Shown in pieces: positions 549 through 47,068 of a stretch of 50,472 nt of DNA. The stretch spans positions 1-50,472 of the IMG/VR virus record IMGVR_UViG_3300038406_000147; one strand, given 5' to 3'. The notes beneath the pieces were generated by a model. That model was not told the DNA's origin. It searched no databases and saw only the letters and a list, made by a program, of their open reading frames with translations. Position numbers and translations under genes: made by a program. The stretch is from a virus. Its lineage: Duplodnaviria > Caudoviricetes. Position 1 is the first letter of the stretch; the number at the start of each line of letters is the position of its first letter.

Positions 549-751
549 GCGATCCGATCAACCACCCGCAGCACTACACCGGCCACCCGAGCGGGATCGA
601 GTGCATCCAGGTGACCGAGCACATGGGATTCAACCTGGGTAACGCCGTCAAGTACATCTGGCGAGCGGATCTGAAAGGTGACGCGATCCAGGACCTTCAC
701 AAGGCTGCCTGGTACGTCCAGCGCGAGATCAACCGGCGGGAGCAAGCATGA
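545..751 (+). CDS. DUF3310-family phage protein
   Basis: DPINHPQHYT...IECI...FNLGNAVKYIWRA motif. Confidence 0.85.
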   Translation: MSDPINHPQHYTGHPSGIECIQVTEHMGFNLGNAVKYIWRADLKGDAIQDLHKAAWYVQREINRREQA

Positions 752-3700
752 AGCCGTTCGCTGACTCCATTGTGGGCTATGTCCAGGCGGGCTGGCCCTG
801 CATCCTGCCCGTGCCGGTGGCCGAGAAGTCGCCGCCACCGTCCGGGTTCACCGGAGCCGGCGGACGCGACACCCAACCTCTCGACCTGGTGAACTGGGCT
901 AAGACCCACGGCGACTGGTCGGTGGCCCTGCGGATGCCGGACGGTGTGGTCGGCATCGACGTAGACCACTACGACAAGGGCTCCGTGAAGAAACGGGGCG
1001 GCGACACCCTGGCCGAGTACGAACAGACGTGGGGGCCACTACCGGACACCTGGAGCTCGACCGCGCGCTGGTCTGCCGGGCACGTCCTGGACACCCCGAG
1101 CCGGATCATGTTCTTCCGGGTACCGGCCGGCCGGTACGCCACCTTGCTCGGGGAGGCCATCGAGATTATCCAACGTCATCACCGGTACGCCGTGGTGGCG
1201 CCCTCGATCCACCAGAAGGTCGAACAAGCGTACATGTGGTTCGGTCCCGATGGTTGCGCAACCACCGACGTGCCGAAGCCCACCGAGTTGCCAGAGCTGC
1301 CGCAGCGGTGGGTGGAGGGACTGCGGGAGGGCGCCACGCAGGCCGGGCCGGCCGCAGCCGGGGAGAGCCAGGGACAGAGCATGCTGGCGGGCCTGAGCGC
1401 CAACCAGGCGCCGGCGTGCGCCGAGGTTGCCAACGCCCTGACCCGGGCCATGGAGCTGGTCTCGGCCTCGTCCTCGGGCACCCGGCACGACACCTGCACC
1501 GAGCGGGTCCACCACCTGGTGCAGATGGGTGCCGCCGGTCACCCCGGGGTCACTGACGCGCTCCTACGCCTGCGGGGGGTGTGGGAAGCGCTAACCGCCG
1601 GGGAGGGCCGCGAAGGCGAGTTCGACCGGATGGCGCTGACCTCGGCGCGCAAGGCGGTCACCAAGATCGGCCGAAACACCCCGGTCCCTCACCACCCGTG
1701 CTTAACCGGCGGCGAGCTGTGGAACCCGCCCGCGCCGGCTGGCCCGGACGACCCGGCCGTGACCCCGGTACCGGCCGCCGCCCCGCGGTGGTGGTCACCG
1801 CGCGAGATCATCGGCACGCACCTGTTCGACCCGCGGGCAGACCTCGATCAGGGCCTGGCGGCCGAGGTGCTCCGGCGGATGTGGCCGGTGCTGCGCTACG
1901 CCGCGGACGCCCGGACCTGGCTGCTGCGCGGCCCGGACCGGTGGGAGTCCCGCGGCGATCTGACCCGCTGGGCTGTGCACGAGCTGGCCGAGCTGATGCC
2001 CCGGGGCAACCCGGAGGCCGAGAAGGGTTCGGATGAGCTGGCCCGAGCAGTGCGGCGCAGACGGCTGATGATGACCCCTGGGCGCAACGCCGTGGGCCAG
2101 AGCATGGCCGCCGCAGTCGCCGCCGGCACGCACCCGTGCAGCCTGCGCCTGACCGACCTGGACAGCGAGCCGCACCTGCTGTGGGCCGGCGGGATGCCCT
2201 ACGACCTACGGGCCAGCGCTGACCGGCCTGTGGTGGCCGCGGTGGACCCGAACACCCCGCACCTGCACTCGGCAGCGTGCGCCCCGGCTGAGGTGCCCAC
2301 GCCACTATGGGACGCCTTCCTGGTAGCGGTCTGGCCGGACCCCGAAGTGCGGGCGTGGGCACTGCGGGTGCTCTCGATCACGTTCACCGGGATACCGGAC
2401 GCCGCGCTCCCGATCCTGCTCGGGGACCCGCGCCGGGGTAAGACTCAGGCGGTCCACCTGTTGATGTCGGTGTTGGGCTCGTACGCGCTGGCCGCCGACC
2501 CGCGGCTGCTGGGAGGCGGGGACAACTCTCACGCCTCCATCGTGTTCGCCCTGAAGGGCTGCCGGCTGGCGTTCGTGGACGAGGGACCGCGGGAGAGCCG
2601 ATGGGCGCAGGAGCGACTGAAGCAGCTCACCGGCGGCGGCCAGCTCACCGGCAACGCCATGCGCCAGGACCCGGTGACGTTCGGCCCGACCCACACGCTG
2701 GTGCTGACCGCCAACGACGAGCCCCCGCTGACCGACCCAGCGGTGCGCGCCCGGGTTCGGCTACTGCCCTGCGATGGGGAAGAGGACACGGTACGCGCAG
2801 CCCGCGCCACGATCGGAGAGCTCAGCGGGGCGCGGTGGCAGGCCGAGGCGCCGGGCGTGCTGGCTCAGATGATCCGTGAAGCCGCCCGCTGGTTGGCCGA
2901 CCGGAATTCCGCCCTGAGCGCGAACGCGCCGATAGGGCTGATGGGCCGGGCCGAGGTGATCGCCGCCGCACAAAACACTGTGCTCCAGTGGTTTGCCGAC
3001 ACCTGCGCCCCGTACGAGCCGGGAACCCGCTCGAGTCAACTACACATCAACTACGTGGAGTGGTGCCGAAACCACGGAGTTAAGCCCGCCGACCAGCTGA
3101 GCCTGCCGAAGTGGGCCAAAGAGATGGACCGCCTGGGCTACCCGGTGGACGAAAGGCGGGACGCGAACTACCGAGGCTTGCGAATCGTGCCGGGCGAGGT
3201 GACCGCGTTCCCGCAGTCACTGCCCGTCACCACACCGCCTGTGGAGGGTCCGCCCGCCTCCGGAGGAGGGTCTGTGGGGACTTTTTCGGCCGACCCTCCA
3301 CACCCCGAAATCCCAGGTCAGACGGTACTTTCTGATAGTAGTGTGGAGGGAGAGGAGAGTCTACTACGTTCTATAAACACAACAACACACACACAAGATC
3401 ATATAGCAAATGATCATGCAATATCCGAGATTTCCCGGGAAAGGGGAGTAGGTACCCTCCGCCAAGCAAAAACCGGGAAAAATGTCGGGCCTGACCTGCG
3501 GAAAGTCCCGAGGAGGGTTGGGTCTCCGCAACCCCCCACACCTCCGCAGCCCGGCCTGAAGGCCGATCCCGGCTCGGGGCGGTTCACGAAGGCCGCCGCC
3601 AAGGCCGCCGCCAAGATCGAAGCCCGGATCGAGGCCGCCGGCCCGATCTACCAGCTGCCGGCCGCCGTCGACCGCGCCGGCACCGTCGTCCCGCTGAGCC

Positions 3701-5463
3701 TGGAGCGGGCCGCCGCTGTGATCCGCGCCGCCACGGCCCGGACCGGCGCGTTGACAGTGGACGTCGAGCACACTGGGTACGCCGTTGGCCACGCCGACTA
3801 CGCGCTGCGGACCGTGCAGCTCGGCGGCGAGGACCTCACGGTGGTGCTGGACGCCGCCGACCCAGCGCACCGAGAGGTGGGGCAGGTCGCCCTGGCCGCC
3901 GCCGCCAAGCTGCACGCCCACTCGGCCACCGCCGATCTGGTGCCGCTGGTGGCCGCCGGCTGGCTCGACGAGTCGGCCTGGGACCGGATGTACGACACGG
4001 TGATCCCGGCCAAGCTGGCTGACCCGTCCTCGACCGGCAGTGACCCGGCGCTGAAGCAGCTCTCCGGCGCGGTACTGGGTGAGGTTGCCACCGCGCCGGG
4101 CGCCGACGAAGCGCGGGCCAGGCTGTTCAAGGTCAACGGCTGGCTGACCGACACCAAGATCACCACACCGGTTGAGAAGTCCGGCTGGGCGCAGGTCGAC
4201 CACACCTGCGAGACCATGATCCGCTACGACGGCAGCGACGTGCTGGATACCGCCGCCCTGGCCGTCCGGTTGCCGTGGCCGGCTGCGGACCTGCTGGAGC
4301 GCGAGCGGGCGGTGCAGCGGATCACGGCCCGGGTGACCCACCGCGGTCTGCGCATCGACCGGGACCGGGTGACCGAGCTGGAAGCCGAGCACCAGCCCGC
4401 CAAGCAGGTCGCCGCCGAGCGTGTCCAGGCGCTCGGTATCGAGAATCCCGGTAGTGATCGCCAGCTCGCCGACTGTCTCACCGCACTCAAAGTGGAGCTA
4501 CCCAGGACAAAACCGTCCAAGAAGTTCCCTGAGGGGCAGCCGAGTGTGGCGGCCGGCGTCCTGGAGGGCCTCCGTCCGCCCGCCCAGGAGGCGCAGGAGC
4601 TGATTTCAGCCGTCCTGGACTACCGGCACCACGAGACGGTCCTGTCGACGTTCCTGGAGCCGTACAGGGTGCTTTGCGAGCGCGGAGACGGCCGGGCCAG
4701 GCCCACGATCTACACCCTTGGTGCCGATACCGGACGTATGTCCTGTGTTCGCCCTAATTTCCAGAATCTGCCGCGGGAAGGCGGCGTTCGCTCGTGCATC
4801 ACCGCCGATGAGGCGTGGATGTTGGTATCGGCCGACTTCGCCGGGGTCGAGATCCGGGTCATGGCCGCGCTCAGCCAGGACCCGAACCTGATGAAGATCC
4901 TCGCCGAGGGTGCCGACCTGCATTCGATCGTGGCCGCCCAGGCGTTCGGTCCGGAGTTCACCAAGGCGGACCGGTACGCCACCAAGCGCGGCGTCTTCGG
5001 GTGGGCCTACGGCGGGTCCGTGCCGGTGCTGGCCCGCCAGGTCGGGGTCTCTGAGTCGATCATGGCTGCGATCGTGGACTCGCTGGGTCTGGTCGCACCG
5101 ACGTACGTGGCCTGGACCAACGAGATCAAGGCGCAGGTCCGTTCCGGTGCCACTCAGATGCCTACCTACGCCGGCCGGGTCATCCACCTGCATCGACAGC
5201 ACCCGCACAAGGCGCCGAACTACTCGATCCAGGGCACCGCCCGGGAGTTGCTGGTCGATGCCCTGATCAAGTGGGACACCACCGAGTACGGCCGCGGCGG
5301 AGTGGTGGTTCCGATCCATGACGAGATCCTGGCGGTCGTACCGGCCGAGGTAGCCGCCGAGGCGACCAAGGCACTGGTCGATTGTATGACCACGCAACTG
5401 TACGGAGTAGCCATCACCGCGCAGGCCAGTGAGCCCAGCTTCGCCTGGCAGGACGCGGTGTGA
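748..5463 (+). CDS. Primase-polymerase / SF3 (D5-like) helicase / family A DNA polymerase fusion
   Basis: N-terminal prim-pol (VVGIDVD, YAVVAPSIH); Walker A GDPRRGKT and Walker B FVDE; exonuclease motifs TVDVEHTG and YDGSDV; PolA motifs A ADFAGVEIRVMA, B RYATKRGVFGWAYG, C IHDEI. Confidence 0.9.
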   Translation: MKPFADSIVGYVQAGWPCILPVPVAEKSPPPSGFTGAGGRDTQPLDLVNWAKTHGDWSVALRMPDGVVGIDVDHYDKGSVKKRGGDTLAEYEQTWGPLPDTWSSTARWSAGHVLDTPSRIMFFRVPAGRYATLLGEAIEIIQRHHRYAVVAPSIHQKVEQAYMWFGPDGCATTDVPKPTELPELPQRWVEGLREGATQAGPAAAGESQGQSMLAGLSANQAPACAEVANALTRAMELVSASSSGTRHDTCTERVHHLVQMGAAGHPGVTDALLRLRGVWEALTAGEGREGEFDRMALTSARKAVTKIGRNTPVPHHPCLTGGELWNPPAPAGPDDPAVTPVPAAAPRWWSPREIIGTHLFDPRADLDQGLAAEVLRRMWPVLRYAADARTWLLRGPDRWESRGDLTRWAVHELAELMPRGNPEAEKGSDELARAVRRRRLMMTPGRNAVGQSMAAAVAAGTHPCSLRLTDLDSEPHLLWAGGMPYDLRASADRPVVAAVDPNTPHLHSAACAPAEVPTPLWDAFLVAVWPDPEVRAWALRVLSITFTGIPDAALPILLGDPRRGKTQAVHLLMSVLGSYALAADPRLLGGGDNSHASIVFALKGCRLAFVDEGPRESRWAQERLKQLTGGGQLTGNAMRQDPVTFGPTHTLVLTANDEPPLTDPAVRARVRLLPCDGEEDTVRAARATIGELSGARWQAEAPGVLAQMIREAARWLADRNSALSANAPIGLMGRAEVIAAAQNTVLQWFADTCAPYEPGTRSSQLHINYVEWCRNHGVKPADQLSLPKWAKEMDRLGYPVDERRDANYRGLRIVPGEVTAFPQSLPVTTPPVEGPPASGGGSVGTFSADPPHPEIPGQTVLSDSSVEGEESLLRSINTTTHTQDHIANDHAISEISRERGVGTLRQAKTGKNVGPDLRKVPRRVGSPQPPTPPQPGLKADPGSGRFTKAAAKAAAKIEARIEAAGPIYQLPAAVDRAGTVVPLSLERAAAVIRAATARTGALTVDVEHTGYAVGHADYALRTVQLGGEDLTVVLDAADPAHREVGQVALAAAAKLHAHSATADLVPLVAAGWLDESAWDRMYDTVIPAKLADPSSTGSDPALKQLSGAVLGEVATAPGADEARARLFKVNGWLTDTKITTPVEKSGWAQVDHTCETMIRYDGSDVLDTAALAVRLPWPAADLLERERAVQRITARVTHRGLRIDRDRVTELEAEHQPAKQVAAERVQALGIENPGSDRQLADCLTALKVELPRTKPSKKFPEGQPSVAAGVLEGLRPPAQEAQELISAVLDYRHHETVLSTFLEPYRVLCERGDGRARPTIYTLGADTGRMSCVRPNFQNLPREGGVRSCITADEAWMLVSADFAGVEIRVMAALSQDPNLMKILAEGADLHSIVAAQAFGPEFTKADRYATKRGVFGWAYGGSVPVLARQVGVSESIMAAIVDSLGLVAPTYVAWTNEIKAQVRSGATQMPTYAGRVIHLHRQHPHKAPNYSIQGTARELLVDALIKWDTTEYGRGGVVVPIHDEILAVVPAEVAAEATKALVDCMTTQLYGVAITAQASEPSFAWQDAV
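3240..3520. other. Candidate replication origin inside the helicase-polymerase linker
   Basis: AT/AC-rich tract at about 3360-3425 flanked by GGAGGG(T/A) motifs in both orientations (3243, 3265, 3293rc, 3345, 3454rc, 3512). Confidence 0.4.
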
Positions 5464-40641: not shown

Positions 40642-41045
40642 CAGCCGGCCGCCGCCCGGTCATCGTCGCCCAGCCGCCGGTTGATCGCGCGCAAGAAGTC
40701 GCGGATCATCTCCCGGTCGCGCTCGGGGGTGGCCGGGTCGCCCAGCCGACGCTGGAGCAGCGCCACCTCCGGGTCGGGCGGCACCTGGCGCCGGGGACGG
40801 ACCGCGGCGGCGCCAGGCCGGAGTCCGGCAGCGATCAGCGCCTCGTCGAGGTCGAGCCCGAGCGCGTCGGCGATCCGGATGACGATCTCCACACGCTCGG
40901 GCCGGGCCTCGCCGGCCTCATACCTGTAGATGGTGGCCCGGCCCACGCTGGCGGTCTTGGCCAGGCCGGCCGGGGTCAGGTCGGCGGCCCGGCGCGCGGC
41001 GCGCAAATATGCGGCCCACGTCGAGCCCAACGGAGTGTCTCGCAT
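40641..41045 (-). CDS. Xre-family immunity repressor
   Basis: LRAAR..LT..LA...VGRATIYRYEAG..P..IADAL. Confidence 0.85.
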   Translation of the reverse strand: MRDTPLGSTWAAYLRAARRAADLTPAGLAKTASVGRATIYRYEAGEARPERVEIVIRIADALGLDLDEALIAAGLRPGAAAVRPRRQVPPDPEVALLQRRLGDPATPERDREMIRDFLRAINRRLGDDDRAAAG

Positions 41046-41251
41046 AAGAGACAAGGTACGCGGCCGGCCGCGCGGACGTAACCCATCGCGGCGGGCGCGT
41101 CGGCGCCGGTAGCCCATAAAACTTAGGGTGCGTTGTCCCATATCCGAGACACTACCTGTCTCGTAGACGAGACAAATCAGCCGTTCGGATGACCCGTCCC
41201 ACTTGCGGGACGGTCCACTGTCGTGACAGTCTCAATCTCGTGACTGAGACA
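41036..41251. promoter_or_regulatory. Operators TGTCTC-N6-GAGACA (41036-41053, 41134-41151, 41157-41174, 41234-41251)
   Basis: four near-perfect 18-bp palindromes between the divergent repressor and cro-like genes. Confidence 0.8.
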
Positions 41252-41548
41252 ACCCAGGTGTCCGGAGGTGAGACACGTGCGTCCCTGAACTTCGCCAAGA
41301 TCAACGAGCGGTGCGCAGCGCTGGGCGCCACCACCGTCGCCCAGCGCTGCGCCTTACTGAAGGTCAGCCGGGCGCAGCTCTACCGCTGGCTCAGCGGCGC
41401 CAACGACATCACCACACGGCGCGCGCTAGACCTCGCCACCCGCCTGGACCTATCGCTGGCGGATGTCCTCGCGCCCCCGAAGCCGAAGCCGCCCAGCCAC
41501 CCACCGCCACAGCCGCGCCCACCGGCCGGCCCGAAGGGAACCTCATGA
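41240..41548 (+). CDS. Cro-like HTH protein (start uncertain)
   Basis: VSRAQLYRWLSG...LATRLDLSLADV; divergent from the repressor. Confidence 0.8.
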   Translation: MTETTQVSGGETRASLNFAKINERCAALGATTVAQRCALLKVSRAQLYRWLSGANDITTRRALDLATRLDLSLADVLAPPKPKPPSHPPPQPRPPAGPKGTS

Positions 41549-41946
41549 GCGCCTACCACCGCGTGCAAAATCGATGGTGGCCCGCATACGAAGTGGTGTT
41601 CAAGCTGATCAGGCAGCACCCTCCAGTATCCGATGGCGACTTCAACCGATCCCAAGAGAACGCACGGCTATGGATGGCCGTGGACGCAGCCCTGTCCGCG
41701 ATGCAGACCAACACTCCCGACCTTCCCGAAGGCGTCCCCGAGGAGATGTACCTGGTCAAGACTCACTACGCCACTGTTCCCGAGCTGGCCATCTCGATGG
41801 AGCACGTCCTCGCACTGATGACGCGGCGCAATACCGAGCCTGACGACCGTTACACCATCCTGCGCGTCCGGATCGTCGAGGCCACCCCTGTCGAGCTGAA
41901 GCTGGTTCCACGGGAGGTGTCCGATGAGCAAGAAGAAGCCGGTTGA
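41545..41946 (+). CDS. hypothetical protein
   Basis: ATGA overlap. Confidence 0.65.
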   Translation: MSAYHRVQNRWWPAYEVVFKLIRQHPPVSDGDFNRSQENARLWMAVDAALSAMQTNTPDLPEGVPEEMYLVKTHYATVPELAISMEHVLALMTRRNTEPDDRYTILRVRIVEATPVELKLVPREVSDEQEEAG

Positions 41947-42106
41947 CGGACACCCCGCAGGTCACCGGGGCACCGACCCCAAGAACAAGAAGGGGGACTG
42001 GTGGCCGACCCGAGAGCATGGGGCCGACACCGAGCACCAGGGCGGCCTCCCCAACCAGCGCCGGCCACCGATCGGCGACAACCTTGACGAGGAGCCGGCC
42101 AAGTGA
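41924..42106 (+). CDS. hypothetical protein
   Basis: GGAGG RBS. Confidence 0.5.
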   Translation: MSKKKPVDGHPAGHRGTDPKNKKGDWWPTREHGADTEHQGGLPNQRRPPIGDNLDEEPAK

Positions 42107-42297
42107 CTCCCCAGCTGCACTCGGTCGCCGAGGTCGCCAACCTGCTGTCCTGCACCCGGCAGCACATCTACAACCTAATCTCTCGTGGACAACTGTCCAC
42201 AGTGCACATCGGCATGGGGCGGGCGAAGACCCGGATCTCGGAGACCGAGCTGGCCACGTACATCAAGCGCCACACCACGAAGGAACCGGCACGATGA
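42103..42297 (+). CDS. excisionase-like HTH protein
   Basis: SVAEVANLL.CTRQHIYNLI.RGQL..TRI. Confidence 0.85.
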   Translation: MTPQLHSVAEVANLLSCTRQHIYNLISRGQLSTVHIGMGRAKTRISETELATYIKRHTTKEPAR

Positions 42298-42815
42298 GCA
42301 TCTACTTTGACCTCCGACAGCTGATCCACGAGACCGCCGCCGACCAGGACGAGTGGGATCTGGACGTACTGACCAAGATGGTCCACGACAACACCCCGCA
42401 CGACCAGCTCATCGAGGCGTACCGGCAGGCTCTGAAGCACGCCGTGCGCATCGAGCTGGGACAAGCTCCCCGGTCGGGACAGACTTCCACCGGCGCCGGC
42501 CAGACGGTAAGCGATACCCATGAACGGGTCACTGGCGCCGGTGGGACCAACCTGCGCAACTCCCGGGTCGCGCTGCTGCGCCGTTCCGGGTTCCGCGAGC
42601 GGGTCCACGTCGGGGAACGGACCTGGCTGCACATCGAGGAGTGCACGGCCCCGGACCTGCGCTACGCGGCCGACGAGTGCAACCGCATGGCCAAGGCCAA
42701 CGCCGCGGCCCAGCGCCGGTACAAGAAGCTGGCCGACCTGCTCGTGAAGCACAGCGTCGAGCGGGTCCGCGACCTGCCCGTGGACACACTGAGGGCGGTG
42801 TTCGGAAATGCGTAG
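42294..42815 (+). CDS. hypothetical protein upstream of Tas, containing one guide unit
   Basis: ATGA overlap; 173 aa. Confidence 0.75.
   Translation: MSIYFDLRQLIHETAADQDEWDLDVLTKMVHDNTPHDQLIEAYRQALKHAVRIELGQAPRSGQTSTGAGQTVSDTHERVTGAGGTNLRNSRVALLRRSGFRERVHVGERTWLHIEECTAPDLRYAADECNRMAKANAAAQRRYKKLADLLVKHSVERVRDLPVDTLRAVFGNA
42485..42546 (+). ncRNA. TIGR-like stem-loop guide unit (intragenic)
   Basis: stem-CCA-GACGGTAAG-CGATACCCA-TGAACGGGT-CA-stem. Confidence 0.8.
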
Positions 42816-44205
42816 CGCCCAGACCTCCTCGGAGACCAAACACCCAACGATACCCAGGGGAAGTCCGTCTCCGGGGACCAAGCTGCCCGGCCCCGACCAG
42901 CCGGGTCTCGACACCCAGGAAGATCACGTCGGGGCCGGGCACCCGGAGACCACGGAGCGTTCAACACCCATCATGGCGCCGCCTCTGGGGACCAAGCTGC
43001 CCGGCCCCGACCAAACATGTCTCGGTACTCAAAGGACGTCCATCGGGGCCGGGCGCCCGGAGACCAGGGGCAGGTCGACACCCACCGCCTCTCCGCCTCC
43101 AGCGCCCGGCCCCGACCAAACAGCCCGCCAGGCCCAACCATCGCGCGTCGGGGCCGGGCGCCCGGAGACCAGTAGAGCCGCGACACCCATCAGGTTGCCG
43201 TCTCCGGACATCAACGTGCCCGGCCCCGACCGTCTGGATCTCGATACCCACGCACGGAGCGTCGAGGCCGGGCACCCGGAGATCATGCCGGTACCGACAC
43301 CCATGACTGAATCATCTCCGGGCACCGACGTGCCCGGCCCCGACCGCGCGCGGCACGATACCCATAACATCTCCGTCGGGGCCGGGCCGACCCTCTACGA
43401 CCCCGGCTTGTACCTGCTGGCCGAGCAGCTAAACGCGATCGAGGACCTCCGGAAGGCCACGGCGAACCGGCTCCGGCAGGCCACGCGGAACACAGAGGAC
43501 AAGGACGGTGAGGTGCGGGGCCTCGGGCTCCCCGAGGACGCGCCGACCGTGCGCGCCACCGTGAACATGCTGGCCGGGCTGGACGCGATCGAGCACCAGG
43601 TGATCCTGGAGCTTCAGCGGGCGCTGCGCCGGCATCCGCTGAGCACATGGCAGAAGCGGACGGTCGGGGTGGGGGAGAAGCAGCTGGCCCGACTACTGTC
43701 CGCGATCGGCGACCCCTACTGGAACACCTTGCACGACCGGCCGCGCATCGTCTCAGAGCTGTGGGCGTACGCCGGCCTCCACACCATCCCCGCCGGCCAT
43801 GAAGCGCACGATACCCAGCCGCTCGCCGCCAACGGGGATAAGCCCGCCGCCCGCCCCCCGGACCATCCCGGCCACGGTACCCACGGCCGTTTCGTCCGGG
43901 TGGCGGCGCGGCGTAAGCGAGGAGAACGGTCGAACTGGTCGACGGAGGCCAAGACCCGGGCGTACCTGATTGCCGAGTCGTGCATCAAGCAGGCGGCCTC
44001 GCCGTACCGGACGGTCTACGACGGCCGGCGCACGGTCACCGCCGAGCGCGTCCACGCAGCCCCCTGCGTGCGCTGCGGCCCGTCCGGTAACCCGGCGGCG
44101 ACCGGCACGCCGTGGAGCCTGGGACATCAGCACGCGGACGGCCTACGAATCGTGTCGAAGACCCTGCTCCGGGACCTGTGGCGCGCAGCCCGTGATGCCC
44201 GATGA
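42808..44205 (+). CDS. TasA-like Nop/IS110-C-terminal-domain RNA-binding protein, no nuclease domain; ORF includes the array (alternative starts 43285, 43303)
   Basis: coiled coil (LRKATANRL), HPL..W...GVGEKQLARLL..IGD, SELWAYAGL, RRKRG..NW..AKTRAY.IAE, SPYR..YD, H..GLR..K.LL.DLW. Confidence 0.8.
   Translation: MRSAQTSSETKHPTIPRGSPSPGTKLPGPDQPGLDTQEDHVGAGHPETTERSTPIMAPPLGTKLPGPDQTCLGTQRTSIGAGRPETRGRSTPTASPPPAPGPDQTARQAQPSRVGAGRPETSRAATPIRLPSPDINVPGPDRLDLDTHARSVEAGHPEIMPVPTPMTESSPGTDVPGPDRARHDTHNISVGAGPTLYDPGLYLLAEQLNAIEDLRKATANRLRQATRNTEDKDGEVRGLGLPEDAPTVRATVNMLAGLDAIEHQVILELQRALRRHPLSTWQKRTVGVGEKQLARLLSAIGDPYWNTLHDRPRIVSELWAYAGLHTIPAGHEAHDTQPLAANGDKPAARPPDHPGHGTHGRFVRVAARRKRGERSNWSTEAKTRAYLIAESCIKQAASPYRTVYDGRRTVTAERVHAAPCVRCGPSGNPAATGTPWSLGHQHADGLRIVSKTLLRDLWRAARDAR
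42827..43387 (+). ncRNA. TIGR-like stem-loop array, 10 dual-spacer units
   Basis: each unit is stem-CCA-N9-CGAYACCCA-N9-C(G/A)-stem; 20 different 9-nt spacers; two alternating stem types. Confidence 0.88.
43786..43906 (+). ncRNA. two TIGR-like guide units inside the Tas Nop domain
   Basis: CCA-TGAAGCGCA-CGATACCCA-GCCGCTCGC-CG and CCA-TCCCGGCCA-CGGTACCCA-CGGCCGTTT-CG, each closed by a stem. Confidence 0.8.
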
Positions 44206-44762
44206 GCACGGTGACCATGGAGGCGTTCGTCGGCGCCCGCTGGATGCTGGACGGCGGCTGCATCGGTGAGGACCCGGAGCTGTTCTACCCCCACAAGCTC
44301 TCGCACCACCAGATCGAGACGGCCAAGAACATATGCAACACCCGGTGCCCGGTAATGGAGAGGTGCCGCAAGTGGGCGCGTTCCGTGCCCGAGCTGCACG
44401 GGGTGTGGGGTGGCGAATCCGAGGACGAGCGCCAGGCGTGGATTCGCGGCACCACCACAACCCGCCGCAGGCGCCACGCTGGCAGGCAGGACGCGAAGAT
44501 CTGCGAATACTGCGCCCAGCTGTTCATCTTCGAGGTTCACCGCAACCGCCCGCGCCGGTTCTGTAGTCCACAGTGCTACACCAGCTACGTCCGTCTGGAT
44601 CACGGAAGCGGCTCCGGCCCGTGCGGAACGGCCCGGGGTGCCTCACACCACCGGCGGCGGGGCGAGCGACCCTGCGCCGCCTGCCACCAGCGCGAGAACG
44701 AGGCCAGCAGGGTCAGGCAGCAACGCCGAGCCGCTCGACGACAAGCAGAGAGGGCGCCGTAA
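44202..44762 (+). CDS. whiB: WhiB-family regulator with C-terminal Cys-rich extension
   Basis: C..DPELFY, AK.IC..CPV...C, GVWGG.SE.ER; extra CxxC, FCSxxC and CGT..H.R.GE.PC..C. Confidence 0.9.
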   Translation: MSTVTMEAFVGARWMLDGGCIGEDPELFYPHKLSHHQIETAKNICNTRCPVMERCRKWARSVPELHGVWGGESEDERQAWIRGTTTTRRRRHAGRQDAKICEYCAQLFIFEVHRNRPRRFCSPQCYTSYVRLDHGSGSGPCGTARGASHHRRRGERPCAACHQRENEASRVRQQRRAARRQAERAP

Positions 44763-45151
44763 TGATCTACAGCCACTGCGAGGCCCACCCCGATCACTGT
44801 AACAACGACAACCGGCCAAAGATCGTCGTCCTTTGTGGCTCAACACGGTTCTACGAGCAGTACCAACAATCCAACTACAACGAAACCATGGCCGGTCGGA
44901 TCGTCCTGTCGGTGGGCTTCTATCCACACGCCAAGGCGGAGCACGGTCACGGTGAAGGCGTCGGTCACGACTCGATCGAGAAGGTCGAGCTGGACAAGCT
45001 GCACAAACGCAAGATCGACCTTGCTGACGAGGTGCTAGTGCTGAACGTCGGTGGCTACATCGGCGACTCCACCCGCAGCGAGGTCATGTACGCAATCTAC
45101 CGAGGCAAGCCCATCCGCTGGCTAGAAGAAGCAGAAAGGACACCAGAATGA
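44762..45151 (+). CDS. nucleoside 2-deoxyribosyltransferase-like protein
   Basis: VVLCGSTRF, H.RKIDLADEVLVLNVGGYIGDST.SE. Confidence 0.65.
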   Translation: MIYSHCEAHPDHCNNDNRPKIVVLCGSTRFYEQYQQSNYNETMAGRIVLSVGFYPHAKAEHGHGEGVGHDSIEKVELDKLHKRKIDLADEVLVLNVGGYIGDSTRSEVMYAIYRGKPIRWLEEAERTPE

Positions 45152-45951: not shown

Positions 45952-46268
45952 CCACCACACCACCCAGTGTCCAGGTCCCGATCCCGCCGGAGAGCCGCCT
46001 GGAGCAGCTCCTGGCTATCTACGAGGACCTGAAGCCGAAAGCCGACGAGATCAACAACCGGCTGAAGATCATCACCGACTCGATCAAGGCCGAGCTAATC
46101 ACGGCAGCGCCGCTGGCCCAGCGGATCGACATCGCCGGACACCCGCTCTACATGGTCTGGATGGAGAGGTGGTCGCTAGACACCAAGCGAATGAAGATCG
46201 AGATTCCAGAGCTGTACGCGGCGTACGCCCGCAAGAGCAGCACCTGGTACCTGAAGCGGTCGTACTGA
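45948..46268 (+). CDS. hypothetical protein
   Basis: coiled coil; LDTKRMK..PELYA.Y. Confidence 0.7.
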   Translation: MTTTPPSVQVPIPPESRLEQLLAIYEDLKPKADEINNRLKIITDSIKAELITAAPLAQRIDIAGHPLYMVWMERWSLDTKRMKIEIPELYAAYARKSSTWYLKRSY

Positions 46269-47068
46269 TGGTCTCTGTCGCCGAGTTCATGACCGCCGCG
46301 CCGGCGCCGCTCAACGGCAACTCGCCCTGGGCGGCCCGGTACGCGGTCGAGCTGCGGCGGGTGATCACCGAGTACGCCAACAACCGGCCCCGCAACCTCC
46401 AGAAGCACCTGGGACCCAGCGAGCTCGGCTCACCGTGCGACCGGCAGGTGGCGGGGAAGATGGCCGGGCTGCCGGCGACCAACCACGTCGTCGACCCGTG
46501 GCCCAGCTTCGTGGGCACCGCGCTGCACGCCGAGGAAGCCAAGGCGTTCGAGTGGGACAACACGCAGACCGGGTTACTCCGTTGGGTCGCCGAGCAACGG
46601 GTCACCCCACACCCGGACCACCCGGGCACCGGTGACCTGTACGACGGCCTGGAGGAGGCCGTGGTGGACCACAAGAACCTGGGTCTCACCTCGATGGCGA
46701 AGGTCCGCTCCAGTGACGGGCCACCACTTCGCTACCAGATCCAACTTCTGTTGTACGGCAAGGGTTTCCGACTGATGGGCCTGCCCGTAAAGCGGGTTGT
46801 CCTTGCCGCCTACCCGCGAGCCGCCGCCACCCTGGACGGGATGTTCGTCTGGGAGCGGCTGGCCCGTCCCGATGACGATCTGCTGCTGGAGGAGGTGTTC
46901 AAGCTTACCGCCGCGCGCCAGGTCATGGCCAACCAAATCCTATCTGGACAACTGACACTGAACGACATTCCGAAGCGCGCGGATGACGATGAGTGCTACT
47001 TCTGCCCGTTCTACCGACCGCAGTCCGCACGAGACAACGGTCCCGGATGCCCCGGGACCACCACATAG
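46268..47068 (+). CDS. PD-(D/E)XK (Cas4-like) exonuclease
   Basis: GPSELG..CDR, GTALH, GTGD, VVDHK, QLLLYG, C.FCPF. Confidence 0.85.
   Translation: MVSVAEFMTAAPAPLNGNSPWAARYAVELRRVITEYANNRPRNLQKHLGPSELGSPCDRQVAGKMAGLPATNHVVDPWPSFVGTALHAEEAKAFEWDNTQTGLLRWVAEQRVTPHPDHPGTGDLYDGLEEAVVDHKNLGLTSMAKVRSSDGPPLRYQIQLLLYGKGFRLMGLPVKRVVLAAYPRAAATLDGMFVWERLARPDDDLLLEEVFKLTAARQVMANQILSGQLTLNDIPKRADDDECYFCPFYRPQSARDNGPGCPGTTT

Follow-up and report, generated by a model that had tools for sequence, protein, structure and literature searches.

The ten-unit stem-loop TIGR array that we found in the window (the whole stretch of virus DNA analysed, 50,472 nt, IMG/VR record IMGVR_UViG_3300038406_000147) lies in frame with tasA. 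Ribosomes that likely re-initiate where ATG 42808 overlaps the stop codon of a conserved upstream partner gene probably translate the array into a disordered tail of TasA. Sequence comparison established an open frame, the anatomy of the guide units, the orthology of the start codon, selection on the reading frame, the exclusion of one unit phase and a spacer bias that is linked to the frame. Taken by itself, the window gives weak evidence for a selected frame; the comparison with relatives lifts that evidence far beyond chance. The features are listed in Table 1.

Table 1. Features of the tasA locus in the window
Feature	Position	Strand	Evidence or remark
Partner gene, 173 aa, helical, PHROG 4604, uncharacterised	42294..42815	+	homolog in 109/117 representative tas loci
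Single stem-loop TIGR unit (42501) in central linker of partner gene	42485..42546	+	phase 0 of partner gene
Shine-Dalgarno-like stretch, modest, 7 nt 5' of ATG 42808	42793..42800	+	-6.6 kcal/mol
Predicted tasA start codon ATG	42808..42810	+	aligns with start of array-free relatives
Ten-unit stem-loop TIGR array	42826..43387	+	repeat geometry, fold z = -5.2
TasA core: coiled coil and Nop-type domain, without RuvC or HNH	43390..44205	+	phmmer, Foldseek, model
TIGR unit (43798) in disordered internal TasA loop, imperfect stem	43788..43838	+	phase 0
Second TIGR unit (43864) in the same internal TasA loop	43851..43906	+	phase 0

The virus record is linear and 65% complete, and the phage originates from sediment. 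It contains terminase, portal, capsid, tail and endolysin genes together with an integrase, repressor, HTH and WhiB region. It is probably a temperate actinobacterial phage, judging by the GC content of about 67%, the WhiB gene and the Streptomyces, Kitasatospora and Gordonia phages in which homologs occur. As the original prediction had it, the array is free of stops from ATG 42808 into the Nop domain: the plus-strand ORF 42808-44205 reads through the array and then the Nop-fold TasA as 465 aa with zero stops. The five remaining frames contain 1-4 stops each, the +1 frame only a single one. A contig from the likely source run spans 42257-44266 with 0 differences from the record. When random non-coding spacers were placed in the window scaffold, the frame was open in 27% of 20,000 trials, and the public gene call for the TasA protein is 336 aa.

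Each guide unit consists of a box C, a 9-nt spacer, a 9-nt loop and a second 9-nt spacer with a flanking stem. The box C CA/CG is located at 42837, 42898, 42951, 43012 and 43065 in units 1-5 and at 43117, 43170, 43231, 43284 and 43345 in units 6-10, with unit spacings of 61, 53, 61, 53, 52, 53, 61, 53 and 61 nt; two stem types alternate, one in phase 2 and the other in phase 0. Distances between copies of the larger repeat are 114, 105, 114 and 114 nt, exactly as predicted, and PGPD was indeed counted five times in the ORF translation. The window holds 13 TIGR units with 26 distinct spacers: ten units in the array, one in the partner gene and two in the TasA core. A palindromic stem of 5-15 bp with at most one mismatch is present in 12 of the 13 units, including all 10 of the array, and the stem of the unit at 43798 is interrupted. 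By the definition of Xu et al. (2026, bioRxiv 10.64898/2026.09.09.750476) several units have imperfect C or D boxes: all four boxes are present in 6 of the 13, one is variant in 5 and two are variant in 2. The automatic unit detector found nine of the ten array units and missed the one at 43117. [quoted passage not shown] The Rfam search gave zero matches at E 0.1. A sigma-70-type promoter was not found in 40900-44800, with a model that is uninformative for an actinobacterial-type host group. On the minus strand, two weak pattern hits (7104 and 2250) had 4 loop mismatches and were discarded. For possible targets, no site with spacer A plus reverse-complement B at up to 2 mismatches was present within the phage's own record, where one 2-mismatch spacer match has the opposite order. 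For 914 distinct units against 1.1 Mb DNA, best matches with 1/2 mismatches numbered 5/34 compared with 2-5/28-37 for shuffled pairs, which is the chance level.

The protein encoded 3' of the array belongs to the Tas family. The phmmer search with the core matched TasR 9MTY (E=3.6e-10) and TasH (E=0.0027), and the top ten Foldseek matches of the core model are all TasH/TasR (E 8e-7 to 5e-6); a Pfam search of the 465-aa ORF gave zero domain matches. The model (pLDDT 79.6) contains only coiled-coil and Nop elements and, since no nuclease domain is fused to the Nop core, the protein is a TasA. It shares the coiled-coil plus Nop fold with the TasR/TasH nucleases (PDB 9MTY, 9W02-9W04) and IS110 recombinases but is without RuvC, HNH or DEDD and would carry the translated array at its N-terminus instead. 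Databases label relatives 'transposase'. This TasA is encoded in 90 phage records with annotation, 83 of them from Mycobacterium and 5 from Gordonia phages; its labels among the 60 records listed are hypothetical, transposase and DNA-binding protein. Both internal units are hosted by a loop of the core model, residues 133-171, where pLDDT is <50; relatives have up to five units in this loop, nearly all in phase 0. The translated array would add a 194-aa N-terminal extension from the start to the core, rich in Pro/Thr/Gly/Ser and with no aromatic residue.

Eight in-frame start candidates were compared for Shine-Dalgarno pairing, and ATG 42808 was the best (-6.6 kcal/mol), with ATG 42973 close to it (-6.3). 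The ATGs at 43285 and 43303 in unit 9 are in frame as predicted, although the candidate list was incomplete: ATG 42973, TTG 43195, GTG 43216, GTG 43330 and TTG 43408 are also in frame. We agree that no strong RBS/start follows the array, as the sole start there, TTG 43408, has no SD pairing and would remove the conserved LYDP. ATG 42808 overlaps the partner stop by 8 nt, and the first unit begins 29 nt further 3' (23-39 nt in relatives). The nearest relatives (L001, L100, L002, L019 and L026) have an equal -8 start that leads straight into the core, and their codons align with those of the window; the window clade is supported at 99 SH-aLRT, and the three closest relatives in the tree have a tasA N-terminus without an array. 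Homologs fuse 0, 1 or several in-frame units to a common LYDP junction. The window has an overlap of -8 where -4 is common and the N-terminus MRSAQ where most relatives have MT/MS. By local folding, the tasA start region costs 17.7 kcal/mol to open, compared with 6.8-18.3 for eight neighbouring genes.

For the comparative test of the reading frame we used 184 loci (183 fetched plus the window), of which 182 with an N-terminal core gave 117 representatives at 80% identity; the rows left out were L025 (the window itself) and L091 and L117, which have no N-terminal core match. Partner-based counts leave out 8 representatives without a partner match, and the tree leaves out one short core. The unit detector was blind to frame and found 1129 units on the sense strand; shuffled sequences gave 6 and the reverse strand 10. 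Arrays were defined by distance alone, and 85 of the 117 representatives have at least 2 units adjoining the core. The tas frame is open in 68 of these 85 arrays, the other forward frames in 26 and 13 and the reverse frames in 31, 23 and 20; for arrays with at least 5 units the tas frame is open in 37 of 44 versus 8, 3, 12, 8 and 7. An in-frame start that overlaps the upstream stop by 4 or 1 nt is present in 59 of the 68 open arrays versus 3 and 7 in control frames. Where ATGA or GTGA is found at the partner stop together with at least 2 units (n=65), the reading runs in frame and without a stop as far as the core in 58 cases, is out of frame in 6 and is closed in 1; 27 loci are without an ATGA/GTGA overlap at the partner stop. 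The open frames, the overlaps and the aligned start in relatives thus strongly support the predicted translation through the array from ATG 42808.

In clusters of close relatives with open arrays (5 clusters, 19 loci) the distance from partner stop to core varies from 188 to 581 nt and is always 2 mod 3, and in clusters with stop-containing arrays (2 clusters, 16 loci, one with KyMonks1A) the distances fall in different classes mod 3. The expectation that array indels would always be 3n held for the net frame in open-array clusters and not for the unit spacings. Units lie between partner and core in 96 loci, and 31 of the 96 are without a coupled start open to the core. Stops or non-3n indels in related arrays, which had been named as evidence against translation, occur in this minority. 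Stop-containing arrays typically have their own start 3' of the last unit, which makes them a second architecture, not a refutation. Starts 3' of the array whose SD pairing reaches at least -6 kcal/mol in strength were seen in 8 of 31 uncoupled loci compared with 2 of 65 coupled loci. Judged from the sequences, two architectures exist, one with the array translated in tasA and one with an untranslated array and the tas start 3' of it. Since a coupled open array is missing from 31 of the 96 loci, the system in general does not need read-through translation. Cultured phages carry both: the array is within an annotated CDS in Gordonia phages BENtherdunthat, LonelyBoi and Spooky and outside a CDS in Mycobacterium phage KyMonks1A, so that tests are feasible in laboratory hosts. 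In a quick tree of 108 cores both architectures are interspersed, and the branches with strong support require 13 changes or more, so that the coupled architecture was probably not inherited from one origin.

A second sediment sample (run X2) contains a near-identical strain with different spacers in the region of window 42782-43374. Three short contigs of this run each show a net change of -114 nt in array length, at a depth of 2.4-3.6 and across repeats. The two replaced spacer pairs listed are free of in-frame stops and, among the listed differences, each of the 4 substitutions in the core falls on a third codon position; 57 further differences are spread over a 3-kb stretch. These arrays may be a snapshot of spacer turnover.

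A unit can be read in three phases, and in phase 1 both spacers are whole codons. The phases 0/1/2 were counted at 174/0/165 in the 65 coupled arrays and 62/49/40 in the 31 uncoupled ones, so that spacers are in codon register in 0 of 339 coupled units and 49 of 151 uncoupled units; the loci are related and units are duplicated, and these counts, like the spacer counts below, are not fully independent. After dereplication at 70% the phases were 100/0/101 (coupled) and 57/44/35 (uncoupled). Units inside the core or C-terminus follow 162/0/9. All 152 phase changes between neighbours in coupled arrays are between 0 and 2, and all ten units of the window array obey the rule. Because two of three phases are used, neighbour spacings inside ORFs are not all 3n (122/65/83 over 0/1/2 mod 3), and 3n spacing fails as a unit-by-unit rule. 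In the window, duplication of the 61+53 pair and a single 9-nt deletion, so about two independent events, account for it, and it carries little weight there, although it had been taken for the stronger evidence. Stops occur in 13%, 28% and 13% of non-coding units by phase (32, 69 and 31 of 243). Stop avoidance was rejected as the sole cause of the phase rule: it predicts that about 29% of units are in phase 1 and that about 14 of 65 loci lack such units, and we observed 0% and 65 of 65. The phase-1 reading contains 26% Arg and has a net charge of +24 per 100 residues versus -1.5 and +6.6 in the other two.

The spacer codons themselves are biased. In their own phase 0 of 1356 are stops, compared with 58 when the identical spacers are read in the other allowed phase; the corresponding values are 9.8% and 16.7% for Arg, 5.9% and 1.9% for Asp, and 13.8% and 18.7% for bulky hydrophobics. 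The gap is smaller against non-coding spacers from other genomes (Arg 9.8% vs 12.4%, hydrophobics 13.8% vs 18.0%). In a per-locus sign test Arg was lower in 42 loci and higher in 14, and hydrophobics were lower in 44 and higher in 16. Spacer codons are depleted of Arg and hydrophobics and enriched in Asp, Ala and Gly. The absence of stops and the lower Arg bear out the suggestion that the reading frame constrains spacer choice. Most probably the tail is a by-product that is tolerated, and selection keeps it harmless, with no stops, little Arg and few bulky hydrophobics; such selection would also explain the unused Arg-rich phase. Arg might be avoided on account of non-specific nucleic-acid binding or ribosome stalling. 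It is unlikely that the translated tail has a function of its own, for example as an acidic or His-rich disordered TasA regulator or a partner-binding tail. A spacer amino-acid bias beyond stops would fit such a function, as would the long disordered N-termini that Xu et al. describe for many stem-loop TasA clades, but the bias is accounted for by purging of harmful residues without any positive function, close homologs have tails of anything up to about 190 aa or none at all, the nearest relatives are without one, and the residues encoded by spacers are not conserved.

We consider it distinctly improbable that the array is an untranslated leader with an open frame that arose as a GC-rich accident and a TasA start at 43285, 43303, 43330 or 43408. 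The 27% chance of an open frame in the window, the single stop in the +1 frame, the public gene call of 336 aa and the uncoupled third of the loci (31/96) are all compatible with it. Against it, SD pairing at the internal starts is weak or wrongly placed and hairpins enclose or adjoin these starts, post-array starts of the above strength are scarce in coupled loci, ATG 42808 is the orthologous start, and the ten units follow without exception a phase rule seen only in coupled arrays. That PGPD...GAG is a protein repeat whose DNA merely resembles guide units is hardly conceivable in spite of the five in-frame PGPD copies, since what is conserved are palindromic stems, C/D boxes and the fixed 9+9+9 geometry in two reading phases, the 13 units contain so many distinct spacers, like units found far above the shuffled and reverse-strand background also lie outside ORFs in relatives, and the adjoining protein has a Tas fold.

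Under the preferred reading, translation of the array as a TasA tail, partner and tasA would form one coupled operon in which ribosomes re-initiate at 42808 and make the disordered tail and then the core. An mRNA would be either translated to TasA or cut into tigRNAs; the copies that are cut would supply the tigRNAs loaded onto TasA. If it resembles the TasA proteins in the literature, TasA loaded with a tigRNA likely acts as a transcriptional repressor that binds DNA targets of 18 bp. Because no strong start lies 3' of the array, tasA would depend on upstream coupling, and therefore a spacer change or the gain or loss of a unit would have to keep the frame.

The overlap of the partner stop with the tasA start is usual among relatives. 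The central linker of the partner protein has a pLDDT of 57-58, and units are found inside the partner gene in 16 of 109 representatives (phases 18/0/2), the carriers including L001, L002, L019, L026 and L029. Guides thus also nest in the linker of a non-tas gene. Among 89 partner sequences there was no ParB Pfam match, nor any other Pfam match for the partner. At E 0.001 neither PDB sequences nor Foldseek yielded a match, and the ESM Atlas gave nothing usable; the best fold match was VIA (Z 4.6, generic helices), and a new fold does not follow from the absent matches. A single-protein scan of viral contigs returned no partner without tas. A stricter first look at 401 genomes gave 3 matches, two of them weak, partial and with no tas within about 1.5 kb. 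The partner is a candidate tigRNA processing or adaptation factor. It is possible, although we regard it as doubtful, that the stem-loop TIGR of actinobacterial phages is a two-gene system in which this uncharacterised partner coupled to tasA is the missing tigRNA-processing or spacer-renewal factor. In such a system the flexible linkers of the two proteins would house the guides, and a new spacer would always have to get through a filter at the protein level, with stops and the codon-register phase excluded and arginine kept low, so that the filter would be a record of how spacers are renewed.

In-frame intragenic tigRNAs, including 5'-end arrays in tas CDS, have been described by Xu et al., and processed intragenic tigRNAs, for Bifidobacterium longum TasA, and transcription repression by TasA were reported in orthologs other than the window's (10.64898/2026.09.09.750476). 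The same paper proposed a link between tigRNA maturation and translation. The window locus is another example of this arrangement, with units 5' and internal in the tas CDS, an intact frame and disordered regions; its two units in the internal loop resemble those of B. longum TasA, and its long disordered N-terminus is also like that of TasA proteins in their report. What we add to the arrangement in print is a phase rule for units, a codon bias in the spacers and a partner gene coupled to tasA: in the main text of Xu et al. we found no test of frame selection, no phase rule or spacer codon bias, no coupled upstream partner and no unit in a non-tas gene. Stem-loop TIGR-TasA and PlTasA were defined by Faure et al. 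(2025, PMC12045711), where the PlTasA array is described as subarrays split by intergenic sequence, in contrast to the window array inside the tasA frame; the operon partner described there is ParB-like and goes with dual-repeat arrays, whereas the window partner has no Pfam match. The PlTasA N-terminal loop is given as unresolved by Guan et al. (10.64898/2026.08.11.744272). A literature search, with subscription journals mostly outside its scope, gave no further paper on frame selection, phase or partner. Spacer gain and stem-loop tigRNA processing are open questions in the texts of Xu et al. and Faure et al. The comparative data indicate selection on the frame and a filtering of guide sequences through their reading as protein; the phase rule and spacer codon bias narrow the possible mechanisms of spacer gain, and the near-universal partner gene is a concrete candidate factor for processing or spacer gain. 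For engineering, the start codon of an array-bearing tasA is easily mis-called.

Some minor observations were made in the neighbourhood and in relatives. At window 748-5463 there is a 1571-aa ORF with a primase/helicase-like N-terminal half and a DNA polymerase C-terminal half (PHROGs 1156 and 17). An exonuclease gene (PHROG 1674) is located at 46268-47068, 2 kb 3' of tasA, and annotated Cas4-family exonucleases are found near tas in KyMonks1A and BENtherdunthat, which may be the usual early-gene neighbourhood only. Unit periods of about 42 nt were seen in L014 and L022 and of 45 nt in L045, and in L141 eight units with an exact, dual-repeat-like period of 36 nt lie 464 to 212 nt 5' of the TasA core.
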